This document shows, piece after piece, positions 1-64,000 of a stretch of DNA of 64,000 nt. The first letter of the stretch is position 1. Each line of letters opens with the position of its first letter. Source of the stretch: Deinococcales bacterium (GTDB lineage: Bacteria > Deinococcota > Deinococci > Deinococcales > JAAFIG01); contig JAYWGM010000070.1 of NCBI GenBank assembly GCA_043778225.1, positions 15,831 to 79,830 on the forward strand. The letters run 5' to 3'. A program made the translations under genes and the position numbers. The notes beneath the pieces are model-generated. The model did no database searches, was not told the origin of the DNA, and worked only from the letters and a program-made list of their open reading frames with translations.

Positions 1-2
1 AA

Positions 3-506
3 TGGATTCAACGTGGCAACGAGATAGACCTGTCTGCCCTACCAATCGGTAAAAATGTTCGGCTGGGCGCATATGCCTTTGATATTTCAAAAAGCATCAT
101 GCTCTGGGGGGCAAGACGCGAATGCCAAGACCTCCCCAAAAAAGTCAGCCTCGAGTTAAACCAAAGCGCCTCGAGTATTGCTTTTTTACATACGACGGGT
201 TGGCTATCGCCTTTAACCAGCCCACGCACCAAAATCGGAGCGTACACCGTGCAGTACACCGATGGCACAAGTACAGCCATTCCGCTCGAGTACGGACGCA
301 ACATCAGCGCTTGGACTGAGCCACTGATTAAAACCACGCTTTTTGACCCTGTATGGTCTGGACAAACCAAAGGCGGCTTGGAAGTTGGCTTGGTGGTCAT
401 GCCGTGGCAAAACCCCAAGCCGAACGTAAGCATCAAAAGCATCACCCTCGAGAGTGCAGGGCTACAAAGCAACCCAATTCTGATTGGTTTAACGCTGCTG
501 GACTGA
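3..506 (+). CDS. C-terminal part of a probable glycoside hydrolase (carbohydrate-binding-like C-terminal domain); 5' end outside window
   Basis: Frame open from window start; 'IAFLHT...IGAYTVQYTDG...IPLEYGRNISAW...WQNPKP..IKSI' resembles C-terminal modules of GH20/GH2-type enzymes. Confidence 0.45.
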   Translation, partial: WIQRGNEIDLSALPIGKNVRLGAYAFDISKSIMLWGARRECQDLPKKVSLELNQSASSIAFLHTTGWLSPLTSPRTKIGAYTVQYTDGTSTAIPLEYGRNISAWTEPLIKTTLFDPVWSGQTKGGLEVGLVVMPWQNPKPNVSIKSITLESAGLQSNPILIGLTLLD

Positions 507-1952
507 AAAACTCCTCGAGACAAACCCAGCCAAATCCAGCGCCATTTGTTCTAAACTTGGTTTATGAACGTACATCATGTGTCCAGCCTCGTAATACTTG
601 GTCTCGAGGTTCTGACGCAAATGGTTTGGGACTGCCAAGTGGTCAAATACATAGTCCGAAGCCCAATACGGGGTGGCGAGGTCGTAATAACCGTTTAAGA
701 CCATCACCCGTAAGTTTGGGTTCATGTTCATGGCTTTTCGCAAGGTCTCGGAAACATTGACGTATTTATTTTCAAATTCCTTGTATGACCACGGTTGCCA
801 AACTTTCCAACTCAAGATTTCATAGACCACATCGGTTTCAAACCCAAGCTCGGAGCGCACATATTGGTTAAAGGCTGCCGTGTATGCACCATAAATCGCG
901 GCGTAACTCGGGTCAAATTCAAAGTGCTGTCCTGCTGAATCACGGTCAGAAGCGGTAAACCTCGAGTCTAAGCGCCCGATAGTTTTACTTTTATGACGCA
1001 ATAATTCTTTGCAAAAACGCATAATCTCGAGCCGTAAGTGCGAATGCTCAACAAATTCTTTAGAAATTCCGGTCAAACGCGCCACTTCTTTGACGACCCG
1101 CGTTCGTTCGTTGCCCTCGAGCCGATGCCCCTTAAATAAGGCGCTTTGGTAGGCACTTTGGGCAAATTCTTCGGCTTGGCGCAAATGTGACTCGAGCGAT
1201 GCGCCTTTAACCTGACCATGGTAATGCGCCGTGGCAGCAAAAGCGGGCAAGTAAAGGGTGTGCGGTAAATCGTTACCCAGTTCAAAACGAATCGTCGAAA
1301 AATCCAGCACCGTCGAAACCAGCACCAAGCCATTGAGGTAGACCCCGTGGCGTTCTTGCAAGTAACCCGCTAAACCACTGGCTCGGGTTGTGCCGTAACT
1401 TTCGCCAGCCAAAAATTTAGGCGATAACCAGCGCTGTTCGCGGCTGATAAACAAGCGAATAAAATCGCCAACCGACTCTATATCCTTGGTAAAACCATAA
1501 AAATCTTTGGCTTTGCCGCCCTGCACGACCCTCGAGAAACCAGTGCCAACTGGGTCTATAAAGACCAAATCCGAATCTGCCAATAAAGTTTGTGGGTTAT
1601 CCTCGAGACCAAATGGCGGCGGGGTCAGTGCGCCAACATCGCCCATGACCACTTTACGCGGACCAAAGACACCCATGTGCAGCCAGACACTCGAGCTTCC
1701 GGGTCCGCCATTAAAACAAAAAGTAATCGGACGCTTGGCGGTCTCTGTGCCATTTAAGGTGTACGCCACAAAGAAAATCTGGGCTTGGGCTTGTTCGCCT
1801 TCCGAGACACCCTCTTTTTCGATTTCCGAACGCAGCACCATCGTGCCGACTCGAGCCGTGTACTCGAGTTTCTGCCCATGCAGCATCAGGCTGTGCTGGG
1901 TGGTGATGATTTTATCCTCGAGTGGCGGCACAACTTGGGTTTCTTCAGGCAT
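489..1952 (-). CDS. Serine carboxypeptidase, peptidase S10 family
   Basis: FNGGPGSSS, IDPVGTGFS, GESYG nucleophile, C-terminal AGHMMY. Confidence 0.9.
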   Translation of the reverse strand: MPEETQVVPPLEDKIITTQHSLMLHGQKLEYTARVGTMVLRSEIEKEGVSEGEQAQAQIFFVAYTLNGTETAKRPITFCFNGGPGSSSVWLHMGVFGPRKVVMGDVGALTPPPFGLEDNPQTLLADSDLVFIDPVGTGFSRVVQGGKAKDFYGFTKDIESVGDFIRLFISREQRWLSPKFLAGESYGTTRASGLAGYLQERHGVYLNGLVLVSTVLDFSTIRFELGNDLPHTLYLPAFAATAHYHGQVKGASLESHLRQAEEFAQSAYQSALFKGHRLEGNERTRVVKEVARLTGISKEFVEHSHLRLEIMRFCKELLRHKSKTIGRLDSRFTASDRDSAGQHFEFDPSYAAIYGAYTAAFNQYVRSELGFETDVVYEILSWKVWQPWSYKEFENKYVNVSETLRKAMNMNPNLRVMVLNGYYDLATPYWASDYVFDHLAVPNHLRQNLETKYYEAGHMMYVHKPSLEQMALDLAGFVSRSFSVQQR

Positions 1953-1960
1953 AAACCATT

Positions 1961-2416
1961 CTACGGCTTTTGGCGGTCGCTCGAGTCCATAATAATCGTG
2001 ACTGGACCATCGTTGAGTAAACTAACTTTCATATCAGTTTGAAAAATCCCTTCTTGTACTTCCAAACCTTCATTCCGCAGTGCCTCGCAAAATTCACGGT
2101 ATAAACGCCGTCCGTCTTCGCTGCTGGCGGCTTCGAGAAAACTTGGGCGATTACCGCCGCGAGTTTGGCTGTACAAGGTAAACTGCGAAACCGCCAAGAC
2201 CGCGCCGCCAACTTGCTCGAGCGATACATTCATTTTGCCAGCAGGGTCGTTGAAAATCCGCAACTTGGCAATTTTACGCGCCAAATAAGTGGCATCTTCT
2301 CGAGTATCCGATTTTTTAACCCCAAGCAGCACCAAAAAGCCCTGTTTGATGCTCGAGACAATTTTGTTGTCTACGGTCACACTGGCACTCGAAACGCGCT
2401 GCACCACCGCTCTCAC
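1961..2416 (-). CDS. dtd: D-aminoacyl-tRNA deacylase
   Basis: MRAVVQRV start, SQFTL motif, NDGPVT motif. Confidence 0.95.
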   Translation of the reverse strand: MRAVVQRVSSASVTVDNKIVSSIKQGFLVLLGVKKSDTREDATYLARKIAKLRIFNDPAGKMNVSLEQVGGAVLAVSQFTLYSQTRGGNRPSFLEAASSEDGRRLYREFCEALRNEGLEVQEGIFQTDMKVSLLNDGPVTIIMDSSDRQKP

Positions 2417-2694
2417 GCTTGGGCTTTCTCGCCGCTCTCGAGTGGTATTTCTGCCAAAAGCTGGGTCAGGCTTTGCACCGCACTGGTCAAGGTGCTGGCT
2501 TCTTCGGCGTTTAAGTTACCTCGGGTTTTTTGGCTCAACATCTCGAGTAAGCGCAAACTGCGTTCGGCGGTGGCTCGATTGCGGCTCAGACCATCGCGGT
2601 TCATTCGGGCGGTCAGGGCGTTAAATTGTCCAAGGCTGGTTTCGGCAGCCGCCGTTAAGCTATGAATCAGACCCAAAAAATCAGTATTTGCCAT
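2413..2694 (-). CDS. DUF1844-family small protein
   Basis: LLEMLSQKTRGNLNAEE motif; overlaps dtd start by 4 bp. Confidence 0.75.
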   Translation of the reverse strand: MANTDFLGLIHSLTAAAETSLGQFNALTARMNRDGLSRNRATAERSLRLLEMLSQKTRGNLNAEEASTLTSAVQSLTQLLAEIPLESGEKAQA

Positions 2695-2772
2695 GGCTTA
2701 TAAATTAACAGTTTTTTTGCTCGAGCAATGGGCTTCTCGAGCCACCTATTTCTCGGGTACAATAGTCACATC

Positions 2773-4620: not shown

Positions 4621-4640
4621 GGTGTTAGATTAGAGACCGC

Positions 4641-5726: not shown

Positions 5727-5734
5727 GAGGTCTT

Positions 5735-6739: not shown

Positions 6740-6742
6740 ATC

Positions 6743-29524: not shown

Positions 29525-29983
29525 ATGAAAAAGATTTTAGCTGTTTTAATGTTGGTTGTACCGATGGCTTTGACCGCTTGTAACAACGACCTTGGTAATT
29601 ATGTGGTTGGCGTACCAACCGTTTTTCCAACCTTTACGAAAGCCAGTGGTACTTACAATCCTTTGACAAACCAGACAACTGGTGCCTATCAAGTTTCTTT
29701 CAAGGTTGCACCTGGCTCCCCAGGCGGTGTTGTTCAAGCATTTACTGCCGCCGATGGTACGTTATTACCCTTGGGGGTGTCTGTTCCAAGTTGCTCAGTT
29801 ATGCTTGGCAGTGTTCCTCGAGTAGACCCCTGTGATGGGGCTGCCAGTGGTGATATTGGCTTTAGCGCTCCAGGTAGTATTGAAACACTACGGATAAAAG
29901 GCATCAAGGTACAAGGCTTTAATGGTTTGTCCAAGGATATTGTTTGGTCTGGACAAATACCTCTTGTTCCAATGAATCCGTAA
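29525..29983 (+). CDS. Hypothetical lipoprotein
   Basis: RBS AGGAGG, lipobox LTAC. Confidence 0.65.
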   Translation: MKKILAVLMLVVPMALTACNNDLGNYVVGVPTVFPTFTKASGTYNPLTNQTTGAYQVSFKVAPGSPGGVVQAFTAADGTLLPLGVSVPSCSVMLGSVPRVDPCDGAASGDIGFSAPGSIETLRIKGIKVQGFNGLSKDIVWSGQIPLVPMNP

Positions 29984-30002
29984 TAAATATCTTCTAACTA
30001 TA

Positions 30003-30038
30003 GAGGAGGGGTCTTTGCGATGAATGAGACCCCTTCTC
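30003..30038. terminator. Probable terminator between convergent lipoprotein genes
   Basis: GAGGAGGGGTCT...AGACCCCTTCTC hairpin. Confidence 0.55.
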
Positions 30039-30046
30039 TTAGTTAC

Positions 30047-31078
30047 TTAAAAAATCAATAGAAAGGATGTGGTGAGTGACTCGTTATTGGTTGTGAAGTT
30101 AAGATTAGCACGAATAAATACACCTTCAGGAACTGGTGGCTCAAAAGCCAATTTGATACAACCTGCACCTTGGGTTGAGTTGAAAATACCATTAAATGCA
30201 CCTTTGAGAGCAAGAGGTGTTCCAGCAAATGAGTATGTTCCGCCTGTTCCTGATGAAACTTTAAGCATATCAGCGTTTGTGATTGCTAAGCCAACCATAT
30301 GAACTTTGATACCATTGGCTTTAGCTAAAGCAATGACTTCAGTAGGTGTTTTCATGCTCGAATTATCTTCACCATCAGTGAGTACAATTGCCATCTTGTT
30401 TGGTGCTGTTTGTGTCATGGCAAGCTTGACAGAATCATAAGCTGCATCCCAGAGATTAGTACCACCATTTTCGGAAGTGGCGTTATCAATAGCAGTCCCT
30501 AGTAAAATTTTATCTGATGAAAAATCCTGCCACAGTTTCAGGGCAAGATTAGGGGATGTCGCAGGAAAGTCGCCTCCGCTTGAAAATGAACCAATAAGTG
30601 CAGTATCGGATACACTCATACGATTTACGAAAAGTTTACTGGCAGCATTACGACTGGTTTGGGTTTTGTTGCTATTAGGAATTGGATCATTGGTTGACAT
30701 TGAACCAGTCGCATCTAATGCGATGACTGCAGCAATCGCTCCACTCGAAATACCCGAAATAGAACCACACGTAGTAGCTGTGACTTTAGTTGGTTTATAG
30801 GCAGTTCCTCCAACTATGTTATTAGAAACAGTAAATGGGTATACAGAACCTAGTGGCACATTCGGGTTGAGCAATACAGCATTTTCCAATAAATTGCCAT
30901 CTGGTTTCACTGCACTGACACTCAAATTAACTTGTTGCGCCACACTAGCAGAATCAAGATTAAAACCATTAACAATACCAATTAATTTAAGTGGTTCTGG
31001 CTTTGGTTCAGTCGAAGTACAAGCAGTTAGCGCGAATGTTACAATTCCAAACACAACACCAATTCTCAGTTTATTCAT
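30047..31078 (-). CDS. von Willebrand factor A domain lipoprotein
   Basis: Lipobox LTAC; LDATGSM (MIDAS-like), GGTNLWDA, VLTDGEDN; AT-richer and CTCGAG-free. Confidence 0.8.
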   Translation of the reverse strand: MNKLRIGVVFGIVTFALTACTSTEPKPEPLKLIGIVNGFNLDSASVAQQVNLSVSAVKPDGNLLENAVLLNPNVPLGSVYPFTVSNNIVGGTAYKPTKVTATTCGSISGISSGAIAAVIALDATGSMSTNDPIPNSNKTQTSRNAASKLFVNRMSVSDTALIGSFSSGGDFPATSPNLALKLWQDFSSDKILLGTAIDNATSENGGTNLWDAAYDSVKLAMTQTAPNKMAIVLTDGEDNSSMKTPTEVIALAKANGIKVHMVGLAITNADMLKVSSGTGGTYSFAGTPLALKGAFNGIFNSTQGAGCIKLAFEPPVPEGVFIRANLNFTTNNESLTTSFLLIF

Positions 31079-31199
31079 TTTGTTCTCCTCACTAATTTTG
31101 CCTATTAGGGCACGTCTGTAGTATATCTTAATAAATTACAAATCTGTGGTCAATTCCCGCACACTATTGCTTACATTTTATAGCTATAGTTACAGCATA

Positions 31200-31889
31200 G
31201 TGAATATCCTCGCAATCTTTGCCCATCCCGATGACGAAATCAGTTGCCTTGGCGCACTTGCTAAACACGCGGCTCGAGGCGACCATGTAAAACTGGTCTG
31301 GACAACTTACGGCGAACTGGCTTCGCAATTTGGCAATACACCAGCCGCCCAAGTCCAAGCCACTCGAGAATCCCATGGACGTTTTGTGGCACAAACAATT
31401 GGTGCAAGTTATCAGTTTTTTGATATGGGCGATTCAAAAATGCTTGGTTCTCGAGAAGAAGCGCTGGCATTGGCACGTTTGTATGCTGAGTTTAAGCCAG
31501 ATGCAATCATCACTTGGGATGACTTTAACCGTCATCCAGACCACCGCGCCACCGCAAAAATTGCTTTTGATGCCCTGACCTTTGTGCGGATTCCCAAAAT
31601 CTTAAACGAAGGGCGTACCGACACACTCGAGCCACACCGAGCAGCGATTACTTTTTATCAGTATGTCTGTTCAGATTCTAACCGCCCTGTGGTTCATGTG
31701 GACATCAGCCATACTTTCGATATTGCCTTAAAAATTCGTGATTACTACGCCGAGTTTTACAAATGGACATGGAGCAGCGACGATTTTAGGTCGTCTCGAG
31801 CCACTTGGGGGCAAGCCGTTGGAGTCAAATACGCTGAGCGCTTTACAATTCAACGCTCAGTCCATCCACCACTCGAGTATCTGGTCTAA
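31200..31889 (+). CDS. PIG-L/LmbE family deacetylase
   Basis: FAHPDDE and RHPDH motifs. Confidence 0.88.
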   Translation: MNILAIFAHPDDEISCLGALAKHAARGDHVKLVWTTYGELASQFGNTPAAQVQATRESHGRFVAQTIGASYQFFDMGDSKMLGSREEALALARLYAEFKPDAIITWDDFNRHPDHRATAKIAFDALTFVRIPKILNEGRTDTLEPHRAAITFYQYVCSDSNRPVVHVDISHTFDIALKIRDYYAEFYKWTWSSDDFRSSRATWGQAVGVKYAERFTIQRSVHPPLEYLV

Positions 31890-33945: not shown

Positions 33946-34532
33946 AGTACATCTCAGCCCTACTGCTGTTTTCGGCGTTGGCGTTAGCGCAACGCGACAC
34001 CATAGGGCAAAGTATGGTAGTGCGTGGTGTAGATTCCGAGCCAACCAGAAGCCAAGTCAAAAGTATGCGGCTCGAGCAGCAGACCATGACCCTCGAGACC
34101 AACACAGGGCAAATCAGCATTATTGGCTACCCTGTTTGGCTTGAGCGGCAACAACTGGCGGGGACATCCTTGGTCAGCGATTCTTGGTTGCGCCCAGATG
34201 GTCCCGAAACTCGTTTAGAGTTTGCACGGACGTACTCGCCTTTTTTGATTCTTGGTTCACATACCAGTCCAAATTCTGGATTGCTCGGTGGTTGGCGATT
34301 CACCAGCCGCATTGCCGAAAAAACCGCCTTTGTGCAGTTGCTCGAGAAAACCACCGCCCTGCCACTCGAGCGCAATGTGTTGATTAAACAGGGTCTCCTG
34401 CTCTGGTGTGTGCGCCTAGCAGCCCTACACCTGCCACAAGCCACTCAACCCAATGTTTCCAACGAAGCCGAGACTCCGCGTTTTGACTGGGCAGCCCTGC
34501 GGGTTGGTAAAGCCAGCCTGTGCCATAATTAA
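33942..34532 (+). CDS. Hypothetical secreted protein
   Basis: Signal peptide; ATGA overlap with upstream protease. Confidence 0.6.
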   Translation: MKYISALLLFSALALAQRDTIGQSMVVRGVDSEPTRSQVKSMRLEQQTMTLETNTGQISIIGYPVWLERQQLAGTSLVSDSWLRPDGPETRLEFARTYSPFLILGSHTSPNSGLLGGWRFTSRIAEKTAFVQLLEKTTALPLERNVLIKQGLLLWCVRLAALHLPQATQPNVSNEAETPRFDWAALRVGKASLCHN

Positions 34533-34536
34533 GGAT

Positions 34537-48402: not shown

Positions 48403-48448
48403 AGCCGAGGAAAGAGGAGGGTTGGAATTTCCTCTTTCCTCTTTCCTC

Positions 48449-49321
48449 CTAACCTTTAGTCGCACCAACCGTCAAACCACCAATAAAGTAGCGTTGTAGA
48501 GCAAAAAACACAATTAAAGTTGGAGCGCACGCCAGAATACTTCCCGCCACAATCAGTGGATAGTCGGTGGTGAATTGACCGCGCAAATTGGATAAGCCAG
48601 TAGTGATTGGCTTTAAGGCGTTGTCTGTGACCAGTACCAATGCCCAAAGGTAATCATTAAAAATCCAAGTGAACTCGAGGGTGGCTAAACTGGCAATACC
48701 GGGCATCATTAACGGAAAAGCAATCCGTAAAAAGATCGTCCATTCGGTTGCACCGTCAATCTGGGCGCTTTCAAACAAGCTGGCTGGAACAGTTTTCATA
48801 AAGTTACGCAGCACAAAGGTGCTAAAAGCCAATTGAAAAGCGGTATGAAAGAAAATCAGCGCCCAATAAGTATTGTAAATGTTGAGGTCGTTGCTGAGCT
48901 TGAAGACTGGCAGCAATAACATCTGAAAAGGCAGCAATAAGCCACCAACAAACATAAAGTAAATTGGTTTGGCTAACTTAAACTGAAAGCGCACCAAGGC
49001 ATAAGCGCACATCGAAGAGAGCATAATGCAACCAAAAAGCGAAGGTAAGGTAATAATAAAGCTATTTAAGAGGTATTTATCAATGCCCATTTTACCCCAC
49101 GCTCTTATATAATTATCGAGCGAAATGGTTTCGGGAATGCTCCAAAAACCACGGGCGTTAAAGTCATCAAAGCCCCGTAAACTGGTCAGAACAGAACCTG
49201 CAATTGGCACAAGCCACAAAAATGCACCAAACCAAACAATAAACAAAATAACTGGATGCACTCCTTTTTTTGTTTTTGGTTTAGATTTGACAACTGGAAT
49301 TTCTTGGGCAGTGGCACTCAT
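48449..49321 (-). CDS. Carbohydrate ABC permease (MalG-like)
   Basis: LFESAQIDGA EAA loop, WIFNDYLW. Confidence 0.9.
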   Translation of the reverse strand: MSATAQEIPVVKSKPKTKKGVHPVILFIVWFGAFLWLVPIAGSVLTSLRGFDDFNARGFWSIPETISLDNYIRAWGKMGIDKYLLNSFIITLPSLFGCIMLSSMCAYALVRFQFKLAKPIYFMFVGGLLLPFQMLLLPVFKLSNDLNIYNTYWALIFFHTAFQLAFSTFVLRNFMKTVPASLFESAQIDGATEWTIFLRIAFPLMMPGIASLATLEFTWIFNDYLWALVLVTDNALKPITTGLSNLRGQFTTDYPLIVAGSILACAPTLIVFFALQRYFIGGLTVGATKG

Positions 49322-50238
49322 CAGCTTTCCTCCTGTTTCATCACTTCTCGTAAGTACAAGAAAATAAAGATTAAACTAATCGCAAATAGCACCACAGCGA
49401 TACTGGCAGCATAACCCATGCGGTAATCCTCGAAACTTAAATACATATAATTTGCCAGTACGTTGCTCGAGTCAAATGGATTGCCCCTTGTCATGATGTT
49501 GACCATATCAAACGAACGCAAGCTGTCGATAACGCTAATCACCACCACAATCGTGGTAACTGGGGCAAGCATTGGGAAAACCATGTACCTAAACAGTGTC
49601 CAGCCTTCTGCACCATCCATTTTGGCTGCCTCGAGAACTTCTTGGTCTACGGTTTTTAAGCCCGCCAAGTACAAGATCATCACATAACCAACTTGTCGCC
49701 AGACGGCGGCGGCAATGACACTAAAAATAGCTAAGTTTGGGTCGCCCAGCCACTGAATTTCAAAGGCTTTATTGCCAATAAACAACGATAAAAAGGTGTT
49801 CAGTAAGCCCGAACGCGGATTGTAAATCCCTTGCGCCCAAACCAAAGCCGTCACCACGGTGGCTAAAACCAAAGGCAAATAATAGGCAATTTTTAGGAAG
49901 CGATCAAATTTCACATCGGTGTTTAAGACCATCGCTAAACCAAGCCCAGCCGCCGGTGGAATGGTGATAAAAACAATAATCCAAATAATGTTGTTGACAA
50001 TTGATTTGCGAAACGGCTCTTCGCTCCAAAGCCGCTCGAAGTTAGCAAAACCGACACTGTTCCAAGTGTCCGAAAGACCATCCCAGTCGGTGGTGGACAG
50101 TAAAAGTGTCTGAAAAGTCGGGTAAATCACCCAGACCGTATACAAAAGTAATGGCACACCCAGAAACGACATGATCGTTATGAATTGATTAAAGGCACGT
50201 TGCTGCCGATTGACTGTTCGCACAGGTGCTTGCACCAT
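49321..50238 (-). CDS. Carbohydrate ABC permease (MalF-like)
   Basis: LYLAGL...LEAAKMDGA, MTRGNP. Confidence 0.9.
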   Translation of the reverse strand: MVQAPVRTVNRQQRAFNQFITIMSFLGVPLLLYTVWVIYPTFQTLLLSTTDWDGLSDTWNSVGFANFERLWSEEPFRKSIVNNIIWIIVFITIPPAAGLGLAMVLNTDVKFDRFLKIAYYLPLVLATVVTALVWAQGIYNPRSGLLNTFLSLFIGNKAFEIQWLGDPNLAIFSVIAAAVWRQVGYVMILYLAGLKTVDQEVLEAAKMDGAEGWTLFRYMVFPMLAPVTTIVVVISVIDSLRSFDMVNIMTRGNPFDSSNVLANYMYLSFEDYRMGYAASIAVVLFAISLIFIFLYLREVMKQEES

Positions 50239-50278
50239 GAAATCCCCTTTCTCGAGCTTAAAGTTTCTAAAGGTAAAA

Positions 50279-50303
50279 CCCCGCCCGAATCTAAGGGCGG
50301 GGC
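50279..50303. terminator. Intra-operon stem-loop after SBP gene
   Basis: CCCCGCCC-loop-GGGCGGGG. Confidence 0.55.
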
Positions 50304-50320
50304 ATTGAATCAGCACAAAT

Positions 50321-51577
50321 TTATTGGAAAATGCGCTTACGAGCAACTTCAAGGCGCTTTAAGATGTTGTCGAGTTGGGCTGGGTTGGACATAAATTCTT
50401 GGAAACCTTTCATGCCAATGTTTGCCATTTCTGGGTCGGTATCGCGGTCGTAGAATTGAGCGATTGCGTCGGCTTTACCAATAATCGTGGCTTGGGCTTT
50501 GGCAATTTGTGGTTTAGAGGCGTAGAGGCTTGCATCTACGTCGGAACGTGGGGCAAGGCGACCCAATTCTTTAACGCCTTTTTCCATTTGCTCTTTAGAA
50601 CCAATAAAGCCCAAGAAGAGTTTAGCATTCTCGAGGTTCTTGGCTTTGGCTGGCAAGAAGTAACCATCGGTTGGAGCTTCTTCGCCAACTGGTATTTTGG
50701 AATCAATGATTGGGAATCTAAAGAAATCTAATTGAGTTTTCTCGAGTCCGTCTTTCCATTGGTCACGCACAAAATCACCGATTAAGAACATACCGCCTTT
50801 TGGCTCGTTAGCGGTCATCAGGGCAGCCGCTTCGTGCCAATCCAAGCTGGCGCTGTCGGAGTTAAAGCACTTTCTGTCCATTAACTGCTTCCAGTAGGTA
50901 AAGACTTTACGAACTCGAGCATCGGTGTACGGGATTTTTCCGTCAGTCACATCAAAGTGGAATTTTGGTCCGTTGACGCGCATATTCAAGAAGTCAAACC
51001 AACCGCCCAAAGGCCACAAGAACTTGCTGCCAGTCACCATTGGGGTCACGCCGGCGGCATTGAGTTTGTCGCAGAGGGTCAGCAGTTGAGTCCACGTTTG
51101 GGCTTCTTTTAGCCCAAGTTTGGCAAACAAATCTTTGCGGTAGTACATTGCCCACCAGTAGTAATTGGTTGGTACAAAAACAAACTTACCATCGGACTTA
51201 GACAGTTCCTGCATACCCTTTGGAAATGTTTTTGTCCAGCCGTTCTTGTTCCAGACATCACCAATATCAGCTGCCAAGCCACGTTCGGCAAAAGCACGCA
51301 TACGGTTGCCGGCGTACCATGTCAGCACGTCTGGTGGATTATCCGAAGCCAAGTAGGTACGGATGGCGGTCTTGAAACCTTCAATGTCTACCGTGTTGTG
51401 GGTGAAATTGATGCCGGGGTAAGCCTTCTTAAAAAGCGCCACTTGCTCTTCGTCGAATTTACGCGGGGCTGGGTCTGATGCCTGCGAGTTGTAGACCAAG
51501 TTACCGCCACCTTGAGCCATAACTGCTGCCGCACCTGCGACAACAGCACCGAGTGCCACTAAAAGCCACTTTTTCAT
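50321..51577 (-). CDS. Carbohydrate ABC substrate-binding protein
   Basis: RBS AGGAGG, signal peptide, PPDVLTWYAG, QFYDRD. Confidence 0.88.
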   Translation of the reverse strand: MKKWLLVALGAVVAGAAAVMAQGGGNLVYNSQASDPAPRKFDEEQVALFKKAYPGINFTHNTVDIEGFKTAIRTYLASDNPPDVLTWYAGNRMRAFAERGLAADIGDVWNKNGWTKTFPKGMQELSKSDGKFVFVPTNYYWWAMYYRKDLFAKLGLKEAQTWTQLLTLCDKLNAAGVTPMVTGSKFLWPLGGWFDFLNMRVNGPKFHFDVTDGKIPYTDARVRKVFTYWKQLMDRKCFNSDSASLDWHEAAALMTANEPKGGMFLIGDFVRDQWKDGLEKTQLDFFRFPIIDSKIPVGEEAPTDGYFLPAKAKNLENAKLFLGFIGSKEQMEKGVKELGRLAPRSDVDASLYASKPQIAKAQATIIGKADAIAQFYDRDTDPEMANIGMKGFQEFMSNPAQLDNILKRLEVARKRIFQ

Positions 51578-51653
51578 CTTTACTCCTCCTAAGTTGTATT
51601 GCGAACCACAGCCTAACATAAAATTGCGCCATATCAATTAGATTTTTTTGGCT

Positions 51654-52601
51654 TTAACCTCCTTTCAAATTTGGTGCAGTTGACTCGCGTAAAATTAAAC
51701 GTGGGGAAATCATTTCAATTGGTGGCATTGGAAAGCCGCGCAGTTTGGTAATTAAAAGACTGGCTGCCCTTGCGCCTTGTTGCTCGAGCGGTTGCTGGAC
51801 AGTTGTCAGGGCTGGCGTGAAGTGTTTGGCAAGTGGAATATCGTCAAAACCAACCAAAGAAATATCTTCGGGGACACGCAGACCCTTGTTGCGAAGCCCA
51901 TGAAGTAAACCAAGCGCAATATAATCGTTGGCAGCAAAAAGCGCCGTTGGACGATGCGCTAAGGCAGACTCGAGCAATGCAAAACCACTTTCGACTGTCC
52001 AATCTCCGGCGTACCAAGGTGCATCTGGGAAATGCTCGAGTAAACCCGTATAGCGCCCTGTGGCGTGTGGTGCAGCGCTTGGACCGCCGACAAAGACCAC
52101 TTTTGTATGCCCAAACTCCAAGAGATGCCGCGCCACCAAACAGCCACCAGTTCGGTGATCCATCGGGACATCATCGAGTTCAACAAGCGGTAATTGGGTT
52201 AGGTATTCTCTGGCTCTAAAGTTCTGAGGCTCGAGTACCAAGACTCCATCTACGCGGTGTTCGGCGAGTATCCCGCCCTTATCCGAAGCTGATTCAAAAT
52301 CTGCAACCAAAACACTGTACCCCAAGGCTCGAGCTTCGCGCTCTGCACCCGAAAAAAGCGTCCCAAAATTTGGGTCGGTTAGGTGCGGTACAAGCATGGC
52401 GATTAAATGGGTGCGCTGTGTGACCATGCTGCGAGCCGCCGCCGATGGACGATAGCCAAGTTCAGAAATCGCCTGCAGAACCCGTTCTTTGGTTTCCAAA
52501 GCAACATAAGGCTTACCCGACAAGACCCGCGAAACCGTTGGGTAAGTAACCCCAGCAGCTTTAGCAACATCTTTGATCGTTGGGCGGCGAGCCAGTGTCA
52601 T
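51654..52601 (-). CDS. LacI family transcriptional regulator
   Basis: PTIKDVAKAAGV...TVSRVL, VPEDISLVGFDD, LTTV. Confidence 0.93.
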   Translation of the reverse strand: MTLARRPTIKDVAKAAGVTYPTVSRVLSGKPYVALETKERVLQAISELGYRPSAAARSMVTQRTHLIAMLVPHLTDPNFGTLFSGAEREARALGYSVLVADFESASDKGGILAEHRVDGVLVLEPQNFRAREYLTQLPLVELDDVPMDHRTGGCLVARHLLEFGHTKVVFVGGPSAAPHATGRYTGLLEHFPDAPWYAGDWTVESGFALLESALAHRPTALFAANDYIALGLLHGLRNKGLRVPEDISLVGFDDIPLAKHFTPALTTVQQPLEQQGARAASLLITKLRGFPMPPIEMISPRLILRESTAPNLKGG

Positions 52602-56136: not shown

Positions 56137-56175
56137 ATTCGCAATGCCAAGTAAATTCTGGCACAAGGAGAAAAA

Positions 56176-57514: not shown

Positions 57515-60500
57515 GTGACGCGACGTACCGCACAAGCGGCGGGGTCGTCGGGCGTTTTACAACCAGTCAGCAAACCAACAGCCAAATCTGCTGCTGGTGC
57601 TGCGCGGTTGCTTGCCCGCGCCCAACTCGCCATTTTTTCCTTAAAACCACTCGAGACTGGCTTATACGCTGGGCTTCCCCAAGTGGCACGTTTAATGCTG
57701 TTTGCTCGAGATGACCAAGCGGTGCTGCTGACCACACCAGAACGGATGCGGCTTTACAAGGACTTAGCGGTGCTGGGTCGGCAATCGAGCATCAATCCTG
57801 GAATTGCTGATTGGGCTGAACTGGAGAATCATGTGGTCTTAGACATTGCCACGGCACTCGAGGATTTTCCGTCTGAACCAAATGCTTTTAGGCTCGAGTT
57901 AAGGGTTGGTACAAGCTACACTCGAGATGATTTTTTAACGCGGCTCGAGGCTTTGGGCTACGAGCGCGAAGAAAATCTGGACAAAGCCGATTTTGAAAAA
58001 ACCGATGGGTTTTTTAAGGTTTTGGGCGATACTTTAGAAATTACCATTAACCGCTCTGGGCAGGATAAAACAAGGCGAGAAGTCCGAGCCGAATTTTTTG
58101 GCGATGACCTCGAGACCTTAAAACTCAACAACGAGAAAATTAAGCATTTTAGCCTCGCGCCGCTTGGCGATTACGTGCCAGAAGTGGCGTGGGACAGTAC
58201 ACGGCTCGAGCGAGTTGCTGGGCGGGTCTATCTGGATTCGCCAGAGTTTTTTGAAGGCTATTTAACAACCAAGCAGCATCAGCGTTTATGGGCGCATTTA
58301 GCCACTCGAGCCGTGATTTCTTTTGGGGCAACACCACTGTTCCTCGAGACCAAACAATCTTTGCTTGAACCTATGGCGTTTTATCGTGCCAGACTTAAAA
58401 TGTTTGCCGAGGATGCCAAGAACTGGATAGAGGAGGGCTACCGTGTGCAAGTGCTGCTGAAACACGAGCGCACTGGGGCGTATTTGCAAACCAATGTCCT
58501 CAATGCCGAAAGTGGTGTGCCGATGGTCTGGGAATGGCGGGCTGAGCCGCAAGTTGGTAAAGTCACACTGACCCTCGGGACTGCCGAAGCTGGTTTTATT
58601 GACCGCGAAAATAAATTGGTTGTCCTGACCGAAGATGCGCTGTACGGTTTTACCGGTGGCGCGAGTTTGCGAATGCGAAAGCTGCGTGGCAATCCAGTTT
58701 CGGACACGATGGCATTAACCGTCAACGATTACCTGATTCACCCCGAACACGGCATTGGGCAGTTCCTCGGACTCGAGGCACGGCTGGTGCTGGGCGTGAT
58801 GCGCGATTACATTCATTTGCGCTATGCCAACGATGCTCGAATTTACTTGCCTGTCGAGCAACTGCCATTCCTCAAACGCCATCCCGGTACGACCGACGAC
58901 CCGCCGCGTTTAAGTACCTTAGGCACAAACGACTGGGCAAAGGCTCGAGAAAAAGCCAAGAAGAACGCCGAGGAATTGGCACAGAAACTCTTAATTCAGT
59001 ACGCGGCACGGCAAGCCACTTCGGGCATTTCGTACCCTCCAGCCCCGATGGAATGGGACACGGACTTCAACAAGAACTTCCCATTTGAATTTACCAAAGA
59101 CCAAGGCAGAGCCATTAAGGATGTCTACAAAGACCTCGAGCGTGCCATGCCGATGGATAGACTTGTTTCAGGCGATGTGGGCTTTGGTAAAACCGAAGTG
59201 GCGGTGCGTGCCGCCCACCGAGTTGTTGCCAATGGTCGCCAAGTTGCGATTCTCGTGCCAACCACGCTTCTAGCCGAACAGCACCTCGAGACAATACGGC
59301 GGCGCTTTGCCGATACGCCAGTCATCGTGGCGGGATTAAGCCGCTTTACGCCAAACAAAGAAGTTGAGGGTGTCTTCAAGCACCTGCGCGAAGGTAAAAT
59401 TGATATTGTCATCGGTACGCATCGCCTTCTTGCTGAGCAGCTTAGTTTCAAAAACCTTGGATTACTGATTATTGACGAAGAACATCGTTTTGGTGTGATG
59501 CAAAAAGAAAAACTCAAAGCCCTCAAAGCCGGCGAACTCTCCCTCTCGAGTTTTCGGGATGTTGTCCTCGAGAATGAAAAAGACTCCAAGCCCAAAGCCC
59601 GAAAAAGTGGCTCGAGAACGGCTCAAGCCGCCTCAGTCATTGCCCACGACCTCTCGAGCATTATGGGCAATGTGATTGGGGTCAAGCGCGAACGCAAAGT
59701 TGAATTGACCGAACACGCCATAGATGTCATGACCCTTTCTGCCACGCCGATTCCGCGCACCTTGTACATGAGCATGGTTGGTCTGCGTGATATGAGCCAC
59801 ATTGCCACGCCACCTGCGGGGCGCAAACCGATTCAGACCGTCCTTTCGCCATTTGACCCATTCACAGTCCGAGACGCAGTTCTGCACGAAATGGAACGCG
59901 GCGGCAAATGCTTTTATATTCATGACCGCGTGGCAAGCATTGGCAGACGCGCCCAGTACCTACAAACCCTGATTCCAGAAGCTCGGATTGCGGTGGCGCA
60001 CGGTCAAATGCCCGATGGCGAAATCGAAGAAATCATGCAGGGCTTTGAAGAAGGTGCGTTTGATGTGCTGGTTGCCACAACGATTGTTGAATCGGGCTTG
60101 GATATTCCAGAAGCAAATACAATTTTAATAGAACGCTCAGACCGCCTTGGCTTGGCGCAACTCTACCAACTGCGCGGACGTGTGGGTCGCCGTCAAACCG
60201 AGGCATTCGCCTATTTCTTTTATCCGCCGCGCCTGTCCGAAAATGCCGAGCGTCGTCTCTGGGCAATTGCGGATTTAACCGACCTTGGCAGTGGGCATTT
60301 ATTAGCCGAAAAAGACATGGAAATTCGCGGGGTTGGCAATATTCTTGGCGCAGAGCAACATGGGCATATTCAAAATGTGTCACTCGAGGTCTACACCGAA
60401 CTGCTTGGCGAAGCGATTGGAAAACTCAAGGGCGAAGAAAAAGTTATTCCACCACGACTTGCGATAGACCTAAAAGTCAATGCCCGACTCGAGCCAGAGT

Positions 60501-60886
60501 ATATTCCCGAAGAACTCGAGCGAATCGAATACTATGGGCGCTTATCCGAAAGCACCAGCCTTGGCGAAATTAGCCGAGTTGAACGCGAAATGAAATCTAA
60601 ACACGGGGTTGTGCCGCTCGAGGTGCAGAATTTTCTCGAGTTAGCCCGTTTACGTGTGGTTGGTACAGCCAAAGGCGCAATGAGCGTCGGCGAAACCATG
60701 ACCCAATTGGTGGTGCAGTTTGCGCCAAATCGTGGCAGTTTGGATTATGATGCAAGGGCAGCCAAAAACCACCCGAATAAATTACTGGTCACAAAGTACC
60801 CGCCGGGTTTTACGCTCGAGAAGAAAGGCTTAAAACCCGAGGAGTACGCAAGAGCAATTCTCGAGGCGCTGTATGCCTTTGCTTGA
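57515..60886 (+). CDS. mfd: Transcription-repair coupling factor
   Basis: HPEHGIG (CarD-like RID), [37 protein letters not shown]-terminus. Confidence 0.95.
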
Positions 60887-60899
60887 GATATAATTGCCC

Positions 60900-63230
60900 A
60901 TGCCCGATTTTGACTTAACAGAGAATTACAAAGAAATTCGATTAGACCAAATTAAAGATGAGGTTAAAGAGTTCCATCCATTATTGATGCAGCTTTTTCA
61001 AAAACTCCCTCGTGTACTGGATGTTGAATATACACATGGAACTCAAGAATTTGGAGCTGACATTATACTTCAGCGCGATGAAGAGATTCTTGGTAATTCA
61101 GAATATATTGGTATTGTTATCAAGTCGAAACCGATTAAACAAGATTTGGCTGAAATAATCAGGCAAATTGACGAGTGCTTCCAAATTCCAAGAACTTTTA
61201 AGAATGGCAAAGAAAACATCAGGATTTCTACTGTGTGGGTTGTAACGAACTCAAAAATTGAACATAATGCAAAAGTAAAAATCAATTCTCAGTTTGCAAG
61301 TAGAAAAGTTGAATTTGTGGATGGTAGTCGTATCAAATCACTCATAGACAAATATCTACCGTCTTATTGGTCAAACATCGATTATGTCATTGGTAATTTC
61401 CTCTCCATATCCTTGTCTAAAGTTTCTTCTGATGACGAAAAAGCTAGTCTACTTAGTGAGATTGACGATGAATTTTACATTGAACAAGATATTTACTTGC
61501 TGCCAGAAAATCCGAAAATTAAACGAAAGACCTTTAAATTCAAGCCTACGAATCAAAAAATTGACATTTTTAGCATTATTGAAAAAGAAGATTTTATTCT
61601 TGTAGAAGGAGGAATGGGTTTCGGCAAATCCAAACTTCTCAGAAAAGTGTGTAGCCACTATTTGAAACCCGAAATTTTTTTGGCTTCAAATATAATTCCC
61701 ATACTTATCCCATTCAAAGATTTTTTCGATAAATATGAAATGAAGTTGGAAAATCTAATTTCTGCTTTAGTGCCAAAGGATGTAATTGAAAAATTTTCAG
61801 GTGGGCAATTTTTATTCTTAATTGATGGATTTGACGAAAAAAGAAGCGAAAATCATGACCGACTCAAGCAAATCCAAGAACTGCGCCAAGACCTAGCTAA
61901 ACTAGAATTCGGGAAAATACTTTTGAGTACAAGAAGTTTAAGGGGATTAGATATTTCAACGCTTGATTTACCTAAGTCTTCCCGCTTAGAAATACAACCA
62001 CTATCTTTAAGGTCGACATTGCAGTTCATCAATCGATATTGCAAAAAATTCAACATAAGCGAGAATATTCTGGAAGACATAAAGAATTCACCTTTATTTT
62101 TTAATCTGCCTCAAAGCCCGATAGCAGCAATTTTATTGGCAAAGTTAATAACTGAAAATTCTCAAGATATTCCTTCAAACTTGACTGAACTCTATTCAAA
62201 ATATACTGAGCTGTCATTAGGGCGTTGGGACTTAAATAAAGGACTACAGTCTCAAAAAGAGTATGAAGTGATATTTGCAATCATTCAAGAAATTTCAGTT
62301 TATAGTGTAGATAACGAATTCCCCCCTATATCTTCAGAAGAAGTAAAAGGTTTTTTTGTAAACTATTTGGCAAAAAGAAACTTAGGAATTACTGCCGAAG
62401 AATTACATAACAAATTAGTAAGTAGGTCAGATATTATTTTTGAGGATCAAACTACCAATATGTTCACTTTTCGACATAAGACCTTTGCGGAATTTTTTTA
62501 TGCAAAAAGCAAGCTAGGTGCAAAAGCAATTTCAATTGACCAAAAAGCCTTTGATTTCTATTGGGGAGAGGTATATTTTTTCTACTTGGGTCTAATCAAA
62601 GATGCTCCAAATGAGATAAAAATGCTTCGAGAATTAGTTCTTGAAAATGAATTCTCGGAGTTTATTAGAATTGTCTATCTGGGAAATTACATGATGGCTG
62701 CCTACACAACTCCGTATGAAGAAGTCATTGAAACATTGAAATTTATTGCTCTGAGGGCTTCAAACTTATACCTAGCAATTTCATCAGATGGGTCGCAGAC
62801 ATTTTTTGATAATTTATTTGCCAATTTGGAAATAACTAAAGGGCAGCTATTAAGATTCTTCAAATTTTTAATTAAACATAGCTATTCTTTTAAATTTTTT
62901 GAACAGGCTATTCAAGAAGCCATTCTTCGGATTGCCGTTGATACTCATTCGTCTGATGATGAAAAATCTTATGCAGCTTTTTTTCTAGCAAGTATTTCAT
63001 TTGAAAAACAGCAGGACGCTTTAAATTTGTTCATATCTAATATTAAAAATATTCCTATGGAAATTAGGTACATACTGTTAAACGACTCAGGTAAAAAACC
63101 TTTGGATTTAAGTCAAGCAATTAAAAAACTTAATAGAAAGACCGAAAAAGCGCTTAAAAACGCAAATCTAGGCTCAACTATAGCTAAAATTTTAGATTCA
63201 CCAATTAAAAATTCTAAAATCCCAAAATAG
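60900..63230 (+). CDS. Mrr-like nuclease domain fused to NACHT/STAND NTPase (candidate defence protein)
   Basis: N-terminal HG..EFGADI...YIGIVIK; Walker A GGMGFGKS; Walker B LFLIDGFDE; FTFRHKTFAEFF; AT-rich and CTCGAG-free. Confidence 0.75.
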   Translation: MPDFDLTENYKEIRLDQIKDEVKEFHPLLMQLFQKLPRVLDVEYTHGTQEFGADIILQRDEEILGNSEYIGIVIKSKPIKQDLAEIIRQIDECFQIPRTFKNGKENIRISTVWVVTNSKIEHNAKVKINSQFASRKVEFVDGSRIKSLIDKYLPSYWSNIDYVIGNFLSISLSKVSSDDEKASLLSEIDDEFYIEQDIYLLPENPKIKRKTFKFKPTNQKIDIFSIIEKEDFILVEGGMGFGKSKLLRKVCSHYLKPEIFLASNIIPILIPFKDFFDKYEMKLENLISALVPKDVIEKFSGGQFLFLIDGFDEKRSENHDRLKQIQELRQDLAKLEFGKILLSTRSLRGLDISTLDLPKSSRLEIQPLSLRSTLQFINRYCKKFNISENILEDIKNSPLFFNLPQSPIAAILLAKLITENSQDIPSNLTELYSKYTELSLGRWDLNKGLQSQKEYEVIFAIIQEISVYSVDNEFPPISSEEVKGFFVNYLAKRNLGITAEELHNKLVSRSDIIFEDQTTNMFTFRHKTFAEFFYAKSKLGAKAISIDQKAFDFYWGEVYFFYLGLIKDAPNEIKMLRELVLENEFSEFIRIVYLGNYMMAAYTTPYEEVIETLKFIALRASNLYLAISSDGSQTFFDNLFANLEITKGQLLRFFKFLIKHSYSFKFFEQAIQEAILRIAVDTHSSDDEKSYAAFFLASISFEKQQDALNLFISNIKNIPMEIRYILLNDSGKKPLDLSQAIKKLNRKTEKALKNANLGSTIAKILDSPIKNSKIPK

Positions 63231-63271
63231 CTGCTTTGAATAATACTCAATTCGGTTTTCCTAAAGCCCTT

Positions 63272-63613
63272 TCACCGTGGGCGCAACTCAAGATGAACTT
63301 CTAAGTCCAAAGCCGCCGCATAGCGCGTCAGGGTTTTTAACTCGAGGTTCGCATGGGCTTGCTCGAGTTGCGAAACTCTGGCTTTACTGACCTGTAAAAC
63401 TTTTGCCACATTATCCAGCGTTAAACCACGTTTGACTCGAGCTTCTTTGAGCATTGCACCAATTTGTTTGCCAATGGTTATTTGTTCAACTCGAGCGCGA
63501 ATTTCTTGTGGGGTGCTGACCTCGAGTAAACCTTTTGGTGGTGTTCCTTTGATTTCGCCAGTGGCAATTTCTTCGGCACTAAATTCGGCTAGTAAAGCAG
63601 CTAGTTTATTCAT
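63272..63613 (-). CDS. XRE/HTH antitoxin (HigA-like)
   Basis: LKEARVKRGLTLDNVAKVLQVSKARVSQLE. Confidence 0.8.
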   Translation of the reverse strand: MNKLAALLAEFSAEEIATGEIKGTPPKGLLEVSTPQEIRARVEQITIGKQIGAMLKEARVKRGLTLDNVAKVLQVSKARVSQLEQAHANLELKTLTRYAAALDLEVHLELRPR

Positions 63614-63999
63614 GATGACCTCTCTTTCATGACTCTAGGGTTGTGTTTGAAGGCTAAGGCAACCTCGAGAACTTCAATAAGTTTTGCCTCGCTTGGTTCG
63701 TCACCATCTTTTATTTCTGCATTGACGATGACCGCAGCCGTTTTGGTTTCTGGTGTGTAAAAAAATAGGTACACTCGAGCGCCACCTTTTTGTCCACCTC
63801 GAGAACGGGTTTTTAATGCCCAGACCAAATTGTTTTTCATTTTTTTGAGAAATCTCGAGTCTCTTCCCATTTGGTGTAAATCGGTTAGCATTTCAATCAT
63901 CGAGTCATACCGAATTAACTTAATCACTCTCGTTTGCCAAAAAACGGCAAACTGCCGTTCTCGCGTTAAATTCGGTATCGTTAATACTCCCGTTGGTCG
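63610..63999 (-). CDS. RelE/HigB-like toxin; frame open to the window end, contains a TIR element
   Basis: LVWALK...GGARVYLFF motif; ATGA overlap with the HTH gene; true start uncertain. Confidence 0.55.
   Translation of the reverse strand, partial: RPTGVLTIPNLTRERQFAVFWQTRVIKLIRYDSMIEMLTDLHQMGRDSRFLKKMKNNLVWALKTRSRGGQKGGARVYLFFYTPETKTAAVIVNAEIKDGDEPSEAKLIEVLEVALAFKHNPRVMKERSS
63907..63978. mobile_element. 72-bp MITE-like element with terminal inverted repeats
   Basis: ATACCGAATTAAC ... GTTAAATTCGGTAT; internal hairpin GTTTGCC-N7-GGCAAAC; first 27 nt match the 36369 element at 22 positions. Confidence 0.7.
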
Positions 64000-64000
64000 G

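Follow-up and report, generated by a model that had tools for sequence, protein, structure and literature searches.

Introduction

Highly iterated palindromes (HIPs) were first a puzzle of cyanobacteria, and after three decades they still await an explanation. The word HIP1 (GCGATCGC) is accompanied by alternates such as the hexamer GGCGCC in Calothrix PCC 7103 (passages of Elhai 2015, PMC4390886). Passages of the HIP1 literature report that the word raises transformation in a way that depends on methylation and propose that it serves as a mark of self DNA. Here we describe the palindrome CTCGAG in a 64,000-base stretch of genome G000 of an uncultured Deinococcales bacterium (G000:C70:15831-79830; "the window" refers to this whole stretch) and in relatives of that genome. 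A force acts there on the CTCGAG hexamer in DNA and not on its coding meaning, site by site, family-wide and over long times.

Uptake signal sequences (USS) of the Pasteurellaceae and DNA uptake sequences (DUS) of the Neisseriaceae are non-palindromic words of 9-12 bases that occur roughly once per kb, often in terminators. They accumulate by uptake bias and recombination, lie inside genes too, where they shape peptides, and are scarce in imported DNA. In Campylobacter jejuni, methylated RAATTY is required for DNA uptake, according to passages of PMC10046745. For CTCGAG itself, the relevant part of PMC4752239 lists Vsr partners of 5-methylcytosine (m5C) CTCGAG methyltransferases in Nocardia and Rhodopseudomonas palustris. 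No report of CTCGAG abundance in Deinococcota was found in the literature searched, to which subscription journals and REBASE did not belong.

Results

Abundance of CTCGAG in the window and the genome

The source genome G000 comprises 4.03 Mb in 107 contigs with 48.7% GC and is 89% complete. The window (positions 1..64000) contains 398 copies of CTCGAG (6.2 per kb), against a mean of 8.39 in 100 dinucleotide-preserving shuffles (standard deviation 2.78, maximum 16), none of which reached 398. The overabundance claimed in the initial annotation was thus confirmed, and its hand count of 26 copies in positions 1-3000 was reproduced exactly. The high density that it described for most of the window was seen as 10-33 copies in each 4-kb bin, the poorest bins being 48001-52000 (10 copies) and 60001-64000 (16 copies, GC 0.388). 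As it had also stated, the sites occur in all three frames, in genes on both strands and in intergenic DNA.

The whole genome contains 24,877 copies, corresponding to one per 162 bp or about 6,170 per Mb and to 26.7 times the zero-order expectation. CTCGAG is the commonest hexamer, three times as frequent as the runner-up, and the runner-up hexamers are themselves overlaps of CTCGAG. Every contig has 4.0-6.6 copies per kb. The enriched unit is the hexamer: its flanks are close to random in sequence, and CTCGAG accounts for 68% of the TCGA tetramers of G000. The word read backwards, GAGCTC, occurs 24 times in G000, including one occurrence in the window.

Codon use and proteome

Frame 0, in which the word reads Leu-Glu, holds 59% of coding CTCGAG, and CTC and GAG are favoured codons in high-GC relatives, among which a Thermus-like locus matches its shuffled expectation (14 vs 20.8), as it should if the word were a by-product of codon, dipeptide or base composition. 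The coding set for G000 consisted of 3,500 non-overlapping open reading frames (ORFs) of at least 100 aa, which cover 89% of the genome and are uncurated calls serving as a gene proxy. Codons were permuted within each gene in five replicates, keeping protein and codon use. The coding set contained 22,156 CTCGAG, compared with about 2,420 (2,343-2,473) after this synonymous shuffle, a 9-fold excess over a baseline that is conservative, the retained codon use being already inflated by CTCGAG. The excess was found in frame 0 (13,056 vs about 1,690), frame 1 (4,468 vs about 407) and frame 2 (4,632 vs about 326), giving enrichments of 8-14 fold by frame and 11-14 fold off-frame. Non-coding DNA had 6.30 copies per kb, and coding DNA 6.17. 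The synonymous shuffle, the frame counts and the intergenic counts therefore refute a by-product of composition, for which the 24 copies of GAGCTC are also too few, and we give it practically no chance. The initial annotation was right that codon bias does not suffice: the codon-preserving shuffle leaves only about 2,420 of the 22,156 coding sites, and the 9-fold excess stands where an observed-to-expected ratio (O/E) near 1 would have spoken for codon use.

CTCGAG has reshaped the proteins of G000. The dipeptide Leu-Glu has an O/E of 2.33 (18,909 pairs) in the proteome compared with 0.97 for Glu-Leu, and 13,056 of the 18,909 pairs are spelled CTC-GAG. The Leu-Glu O/E is 2.14 in loci of family relatives, compared with 1.03 in Thermus-like and Deinococcus-like loci. 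An excess of Ser-Ser (O/E 1.59) was rejected as an effect of CTCGAG, being similarly high (1.35-1.57) in relatives that are not enriched.

Spellings of Leu-Glu with TTG or CTG are very rare in G000 (TTG-GAA 303, TTG-GAG 268, CTG-GAA 173 and CTG-GAG 95), although no other Leu codons of the genome are as common as these two. Some separate cause may lead to the avoidance of words with TGGA in them.

Phylogenetic extent

Relatives, which are uncultured Deinococcales metagenome-assembled genomes (MAGs), were found through Mfd, the transcription-repair coupling factor, whose gene (57515..60886, + strand, recognised by its Pfam domains) has 25 CTCGAG and was also used for the site-conservation test. 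All loci with an Mfd identity of 66-98% had 4.0-7.5 CTCGAG per kb over a GC range of 41-59%, and the Deinococcus pimensis locus (Mfd identity 56%) had 0.22 per kb.

A pattern search covering 151 genomes of the order, with rounded genome sizes, showed the enrichment to be lineage-specific, as the initial annotation had proposed. In the family of G000 (f1), all 19 genomes had 4.3-6.8 CTCGAG per kb at 44-59% GC, and 16 of the 19 had 0-25 copies of GAGCTC. The 35 genomes of genus g7, tentatively labelled Deinococcus-like, avoid the word, with 37-1,193 copies per genome of 1.9-4.8 Mb. The 22 genomes of genus g9, tentatively labelled Thermus-like, had 0.6-1.1 copies per kb, and the frame counts at one Thermus-like locus, 14/3/0 against 20.8/1.1/0.7 after shuffling, fit codon use. 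Other genera of the order show a moderate enrichment that extends to every frame and to intergenic DNA, for instance G116 (frames 42/5/11 vs 17.8/0.3/1.1 shuffled) and G128 (39/6/9 vs 13.4/1.1/2.5); these per-genome frame tests rest on one locus of 6-20 kb each, with rough ORF calls at high GC. Two genomes of genus g22, G128 and G054, both 99% complete, were enriched with 2.9 and 3.4 copies per kb. GAGCTC is equally rare in g7, and sister lineages thus enrich or avoid CTCGAG.

Conservation of orthologous sites

The window was aligned to 17 relative loci by blastn. In the locus L022, at about 80% nucleotide identity, 60 of 87 CTCGAG (69%) were unchanged compared with 32% of all hexamers, and synonymous positions are near saturation there, the Mfd protein being 96% identical. 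At about 68% identity, about 60% of CTCGAG was kept, against about 17% of all hexamers. Where Leu-Glu itself was conserved, the CTCGAG spelling was retained in 120/148 cases in close, 47/60 in middle and 68/69 in far relatives, compared with 55/158, 9/56 and 5/48 identical codon pairs for the control dipeptides Leu-[Lys, Gln, Asp, Asn, His]. Conversely, where the Leu-Glu of the window was not spelled CTCGAG, the relative had CTCGAG in 16/36 (close), 6/8 (middle) and 11/11 (far) cases. These pairs overlap, comparing the same window sites with several kin mostly in one gene neighbourhood, and give a direction and not independent counts. The initial annotation had asked whether sites are conserved or turn over, and by these alignments they are conserved far beyond background.

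Spacing of sites

Inter-site distances in G000 had a mean of 161 bp and a coefficient of variation (CV) of 0.998. The pair correlation g(r) was 0.39 at 6-17 bp, rose to 0.81-0.95 at 18-65 bp and stood at 1.0-1.09 farther out, with no periodicity, and the ratio of variance to mean of counts was 0.82 at 200 bp, 1.0 at 1 kb and 1.2-1.6 at 2-10 kb. Spacing is therefore Poisson-like beyond about 60 bp. Within about 18 bp of a site, further sites fall short of expectation by a factor of 2.5; pairs at distance 9 numbered 33 against 147 expected, and pairs at distance 6, which would make GAGCTC, were never seen. Beyond this short exclusion zone, CTCGAG sites act as independent units.

Around 3,415 ORF starts (-300 to +300) the density was flat at 6.0-7.0 per kb except over the first 30 bp, where it fell to 4.6, and a regulatory role was rejected on this profile. 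Origin-type clusters were likewise rejected: the densest 400-bp windows held 9-11 CTCGAG, about the Poisson tail for 24,877 trials, and none in the assembled contigs went beyond it.

The exclusion zone bears on the idea that CTCGAG binds an abundant chromosomal protein, either a SeqA-like reader of the (hemi)methylated word or a nucleoid-organising dimer, with a tiny additive benefit per site. We know of no such CTCGAG-binding chromosomal protein, and none was found here. A 6-bp palindrome would suit a dimer, the lack of neighbours below 18 bp is what a footprint would cause, and the density is uniform over genes and spacers; moreover, orphan enzymes leave a few CTCGAG unmethylated in Marinithermus (consulted part of table S5, PMC4752239). 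Set against these points are the absence of clusters at any landmark and the failure to find a cognate methyltransferase in the family, and we hold a binding protein to be improbable.

Site-free stretches and imported DNA

The longest CTCGAG-free stretch of the window (60860..63341, + strand, 2,481 bp) lies directly after mfd and holds a gene with NACHT and NCH1 domains (60894-63230, +; 778 aa, GC 0.327, no CTCGAG). The Poisson chance of finding no site in its 2,337 bp is 5e-7. In L022, about 600 bp separate mfd from the downstream orthologues, compared with about 2.4 kb in the window, and no NACHT match lies at that place; by this comparison, the gene is an insertion relative to L022, a close relative. 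It may be a recently acquired defence-type NTPase. Across G000, 10 of the 14 long CTCGAG-free stretches (1.9-5.6 kb) have a low GC of 0.31-0.39. Because site-free stretches are mostly of low GC and the NACHT gene is absent from L022, missing CTCGAG marks imported DNA, and its absence can serve as a practical flag for imported genes in these genomes. As imported genes lack the word, the force that builds it must act over long times. Its strength can be read from the fold-excess of 27 in intergenic DNA and from the 69% of Leu-Glu pairs spelled CTCGAG, against about 9% expected; the two excesses are similar, and we calculate from them that each site has a scaled advantage of about 3.

The second CTCGAG-free stretch of the window (29817..31273, - strand, 1,456 bp) covers a gene with a VWA domain (30047-31078, GC 0.403, no sites). 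Low densities of 1.1-2.9 CTCGAG per kb, from per-ORF counts, were found in sugar ABC-transporter genes (48449..51637, - strand) assigned by Pfam.

Other palindromes

Most other 6-bp palindromes are depleted in G000. Of the 64, 29 have an O/E below 0.05, 41 below 0.2 and 53 below 0.5, and only six exceed 1; GACGTC, AGGCCT and GGGCCC have one copy each. The tetramers GGCC (131 vs 14,138 expected) and GATC (2,061 vs 15,717 expected) follow suit, and the window contains GGCC once and TTCGAA not at all. The median palindrome O/E is 0.14-0.33 in loci of family relatives compared with 0.58 in other families of the order.

Restriction at a site should lead to its avoidance and not to its enrichment. 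One proposal is that CTCGAG was spared while other palindromes were purged, either as the only safe one in a lineage exposed to extreme restriction or as a leftover from a former restriction-modification system; the erased palindromes and the roughly 24 DNA methyltransferase genes of G000 speak for it. Mere sparing predicts an O/E near 1, however, and not 27, and CTCGAG sites are re-created and alter proteins. The XhoI nuclease family (PF04555) matched 0 of 19 family genomes in a weak test, its control search having matched 0 of 14 genomes. We judge a spared or relic palindrome to be very unlikely.

Within the word's own neighbourhood, the 8-base palindrome CCTCGAGG occurred 243 times, compared with 1,117-2,203 for each of the 15 other flank combinations of CTCGAG in G000; a restriction system that recognises 8 bases may target it.

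CTCGAG methylation in cultured relatives

The consulted part of table S3 of Blow et al. 2016 (PMC4752239) lists CTCGAG with N6-methyladenine (m6A) made by type II enzymes, with an empty field for the cognate restriction enzyme, in three organisms: Marinithermus hydrothermalis DSM 14884 (M.Mhy14884I, Marky_0034; 94.6% of CTCGAG detected), Meiothermus chliarophilus DSM 9957 (M.Mch9957IV, MeichDRAFT_0814; 94.1%) and Meiothermus ruber DSM 1279 (M.Mru1279II, Mrub_2385; 99.5%). In the same passages, CTCGAG is the sole motif detected in M. hydrothermalis, Meiothermus silvanus, the fourth Deinococcota organism of table S3, shows no CTCGAG motif, and table S5 names unmodified CTCGAG sites in Marinithermus; they are silent on the abundance of CTCGAG in these organisms. 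For Allomeiothermus silvanus, in which that study lists no CTCGAG methylation, we counted 63 CTCGAG in the first 50 kb of the plasmid pMESIL01, with 8 off-frame against 1.8 after shuffling and 5 intergenic against 3.6 expected, numbers too small to bear on the link between enrichment and methylation.

Two genomes of the order allowed two of the published enzymes to be placed tentatively. The sole PF07669-like gene of G008 encodes a 447-aa protein with Eco57I and TaqI_C domains (33,943-35,286) and is followed, several genes on, by an AMP-binding ligase whose gene spans 38,455, a position assigned to Marky_0038 in table S5 (PMC4752239, as far as consulted). In G029, a 597-aa protein with Eco57I and TaqI_C domains (2,437,352-2,439,142), called type B below, is followed 12-13 ORFs downstream by a pair of a PF01555 methyltransferase and a BglII-family nuclease. 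In the corresponding passages of PMC4752239, Mrub_2398, which acts on RGATCY and has a cognate restriction enzyme, is 13 locus tags after Mrub_2385. Because this neighbour spacing fits, the type B protein of G029 is probably M.Mru1279II, and the 447-aa protein of G008 is probably the Marinithermus CTCGAG enzyme. Orphan CTCGAG enzymes belong to at least two unrelated lineages.

Enzyme lineages across the order

A TaqI-like lineage had strong orthologues (51-58% identity) in 22/22 g9 genomes and in g30, which are not enriched, with weak matches elsewhere. The specificity of M.TaqI we take to be TCGA. In Thermus-like loci (L177-L199 and L170; 115 kb), TCGA occurred 191 times against 364 expected, 109 of the 191 being inside CTCGAG.

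A second lineage, type A, comprises proteins of 556-569 aa with an M_Eco57I_C domain (alignment A1) that presumably recognise CTCGAG. Strong matches (E below 1e-140) were obtained in 24 of the 151 genomes, namely 7/10 of genus g13, 17/37 of family f2 and 0/19 of f1. The gene sits among housekeeping genes with no adjacent nuclease. Type B was found in the other 3/10 g13 genomes and scattered elsewhere. Types A and B are unrelated and mutually exclusive within the 10 genomes of g13 (loci L286-L299), a pattern that looks like non-orthologous replacement of one function. Since the two types replace each other there, methylation itself is suggested to be what is kept.

Loci around the type A enzyme family from other phyla had a CTCGAG O/E of mostly 0.2-3.4. 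One 12-kb contig around a type A methyltransferase, in a record of a Myxococcota MAG (L227), had 45 CTCGAG, 10.8 times the expectation and more than any other hexamer, while GAGCTC was absent. Either the contig belongs to a Deinococcota genome and was mis-binned, or the case arose independently.

Genomes that we take to represent the Meiothermus and Marinithermus groups had CTCGAG enriched 4-5 fold off-frame. Ten loci of genomes with a type A, type B or G008 enzyme had 78 off-frame sites against 16.4 after shuffling, and 277 in frame 0 against 131. Fifteen loci of f2 and f4 genomes without a match had 65 off-frame against 39.9 and 279 in frame 0 against 176, and G128, G054 and G064, also without a match, had 32 off-frame against 7.1. 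That enzyme presence tracks enrichment is suggestive only, as the loci compared come from related genomes and no direct search of the order was made for type B.

Discussion

A possible methyl-marked self word and the search for its enzyme

In our best reading, which is tentative, possible but well short of probable, CTCGAG may be a family-wide, methyl-marked self word that is read in DNA uptake or recombination. The word would be methylated where an orphan enzyme exists, and natural-transformation or recombination machinery would read it as the cell's own DNA. Alleles with CTCGAG would then be taken up or recombined in more often, and the number of sites would grow, driven either by molecular drive or by selection that is very weak at any one site. 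The initial annotation had suggested an orphan methyltransferase behind the word. This link stands in the cultured relatives, in which CTCGAG carries m6A and no restriction enzyme is listed, but not in G000 and the 19 family genomes, in which no orthologue was found.

G000 has about 24 DNA methyltransferase genes, of the C5, N4/N6, Eco57I-type, type I, type ISP, MmeI-like and D12 classes, most of them at near-native CTCGAG density. Searches against NCBIfam and sequences in the PDB gave no specificity for any of them. In agreement with the initial annotation, the window itself contains no candidate: it showed no tblastn match to the collected methyltransferase proteins, and there was no DNA methyltransferase among the 38 of its 58 ORFs given to Pfam. 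The annotation had further called for a genome-wide search for a solitary CTCGAG methyltransferase, and this search gave no orthologue of the three known lineages in G000.

Three candidates for a family enzyme were rejected. The protein L001 (C65:15245-17197; 650 aa, Eco57I and TaqI_C) has the architecture of known CTCGAG enzymes, with orthologues in 2/18 other family genomes, and a type IIG-like protein on contig C93 (1,341 aa) has one in 1/18; these two genes of G000 with that architecture are accessory. D12-class enzymes were present in 6/6 genomes compared, but these are not orthologous. In G000, dprA is followed at about 1.5 kb downstream by one of the D12-class genes (C89:23686-24828).

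Several results weigh against a methyl-marked self word. The three enzyme lineages gave only partial tblastn matches of 21-34% identity in the 89% complete G000, in two genes that are larger and unrelated. Within f1, weak matches only were obtained with the TaqI-like query (E of 6e-9 or weaker, 6/19 genomes), type A had no strong and one weak match in 19, and type B reached 32% identity at best, in one genome, with nothing at E <=1e-5 in 12/19. No orthologous methyltransferase group (PF00145, PF01555, PF07669, PF02384, PF02086) spans six family genomes, these being G000 and five more, one per genus; all family genomes but one are fragmented MAGs from which plasmids may be missing, and enzymes outside these five Pfam families are missed. 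The single-contig genome G025, with 23,515 CTCGAG, has no PF01555 gene, one low-GC C5 gene with no CTCGAG, members of PF07669 and PF02384 that are type I or type ISP only, and two D12-class genes. In g22, the enriched G128 and G054 carry no PF07669 gene at all. The competence proteins ComEC (PF03772) and DprA (PF02481), each found in 18/19 family genomes, speak for the reading, but they count for little because they occur in most bacteria, the control search having matched 10-11 of 14 genomes. Poisson-like spacing at one site per 160 bp also fits poorly, as a signal for which one site suffices predicts saturation at a far lower density and even spacing. Nothing in these data shows biased uptake.

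Elhai's model for HIP1, a strand-discrimination signal for methyl-directed mismatch repair in which the word is enriched because a methylated site close by is selected for, would find MutS and MutL in the family (MutS domain I, PF01624, in 17/19 genomes; MutL C-terminal domain, PF08676, in 19/19, 18 of them over the cut-off) and a word that is methylated in cultured relatives. MutH (PF02976), however, is not in G000 and occurs in only 2/19 family genomes, no even spacing on the kb scale was seen, and the family has no conserved methyltransferase. According to passages of PMC4390886, the model saturates near one site per kb, and the density here is six times that. We consider it highly improbable. 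Methyl-directed repair had been one of the mechanisms offered in the initial annotation; its MutH type lacks its enzymes in this family, and no Vsr gene (PF03852) was found in G000.

Possible repair or gene conversion at the word

A close rival, although rather doubtful itself, is methylation-independent repair or gene conversion acting site by site, in which a sequence-specific repair or nicking activity would correct near-CTCGAG mismatches or heteroduplexes to CTCGAG. Such a bias would work as a drive in the polyploid, recombination-prone Deinococcota. It accounts for the independence of sites (pair correlation near 1.0 at distances over 60 bp; variance/mean of 1.0 in 1-kb windows), for a similar fold between genes (27 over zero order) and in frames (8-14 over shuffles), for the lack of localisation at gene starts, and for enrichment without a found cognate methyltransferase in the whole family, including G025, and in g22. 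One-off variants of the word via transversion are rare (CACGAG 270, CTAGAG 158, CTG-GAG codon pairs 95) and transition variants about as frequent as expected. The 29 hexamer palindromes with an O/E below 0.05 likewise attest to very strong sequence-specific forces on this DNA. Repair bias fits the spacing and the enzyme-free cases better than a self word does. On the other side, G000, at 89% completeness, has no Vsr-family gene and offers no candidate enzyme, and the deficit of neighbours at 6-60 bp (g(r) 0.39-0.95) is not simply predicted. Known very-short-patch repair, moreover, yields mild enrichment only.

A bolder version, which we think unlikely though worth stating, holds that the word was built and kept without a cognate methyltransferase, by a conversion or repair drive in polyploid, transformable cells, and that a similar drive of opposite sign nearly erased most of the other 6-bp palindromes. 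On this view, the orphan enzymes of Meiothermus and Marinithermus would have followed the word and not caused it, having been recruited independently on several occasions to a genome in which it already abounded. If this were true, word content in these bacteria would be written mainly by molecular drive, and HIP-type words would need no methylation.

Whether methylation is cause or companion can be approached through natural experiments, namely the strongest enrichment without a found enzyme (f1 and g22), enzyme replacement in g13 and avoidance of the word in g7. Cultured relatives that methylate CTCGAG make the phenomenon testable at the bench.

Comparison with known systems

The systems of M.Mru1279II, M.Mch9957IV and M.Mhy14884I share with G000 the word and the order of bacteria, and the family of G000 has no orthologue of these enzymes. 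Dcm and Vsr at CCWGG in Escherichia coli resemble the proposed repair bias in being a sequence-specific repair that favours the methyltransferase's own word; they differ in that G000 has no Vsr and that the CTCGAG methylation known in the relatives is m6A, from which deamination yields no mismatch. With USS and DUS, CTCGAG shares the character of a lineage-specific, over-represented word that is scarce in imported DNA, but it is a 6-base palindrome, occurs once per 160 bp and has no positional preference. RAATTY of C. jejuni, too, is a 6-bp palindrome, m6A-methylated by an orphan enzyme and frequent in the genome of a naturally transformable host, and m6A of CTCGAG is known from cultured relatives; dependence of uptake on the word has been shown in C. 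jejuni and is inferred for CTCGAG. For RAATTY, an enrichment of this size or a similar effect on the proteome is not known to us.

The closest likeness is with HIP1. Both are GC-rich palindromes enriched tens of fold, in coding and non-coding DNA and across a lineage, both are kept more often than neutrality predicts and are seldom found in imported DNA, and both are, in relatives, targets of methyltransferases without a restriction partner. CTCGAG differs in phylum and word, and in its density of about 6,170 per Mb, compared with 300-2,700 per Mb for HIP1 in the passages of PMC4390886. HIP1 is quasi-periodic according to passages of PMC13756078, whereas CTCGAG is Poisson-like (CV 0.998). Elhai describes, in the consulted part of PMC4390886, a cognate methyltransferase in every HIP-rich genome, and none was found in the CTCGAG family. 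Of the features of a HIP, we thus found abundance of tens of fold and conservation beyond neutral, and not quasi-periodicity.

New in this work are the link of abundant CTCGAG to published methylation in cultured relatives, the three enzyme lineages with their replacement pattern and their absence from the family, as well as the spacing statistics and the near-erasure of most other 6-bp palindromes. CTCGAG is a phenomenon of the HIP kind in another phylum, in a family without a found cognate enzyme, Poisson-spaced and denser than its cyanobacterial counterpart. As a second, denser case in an unrelated phylum, it shows the generality of highly iterated palindromes.

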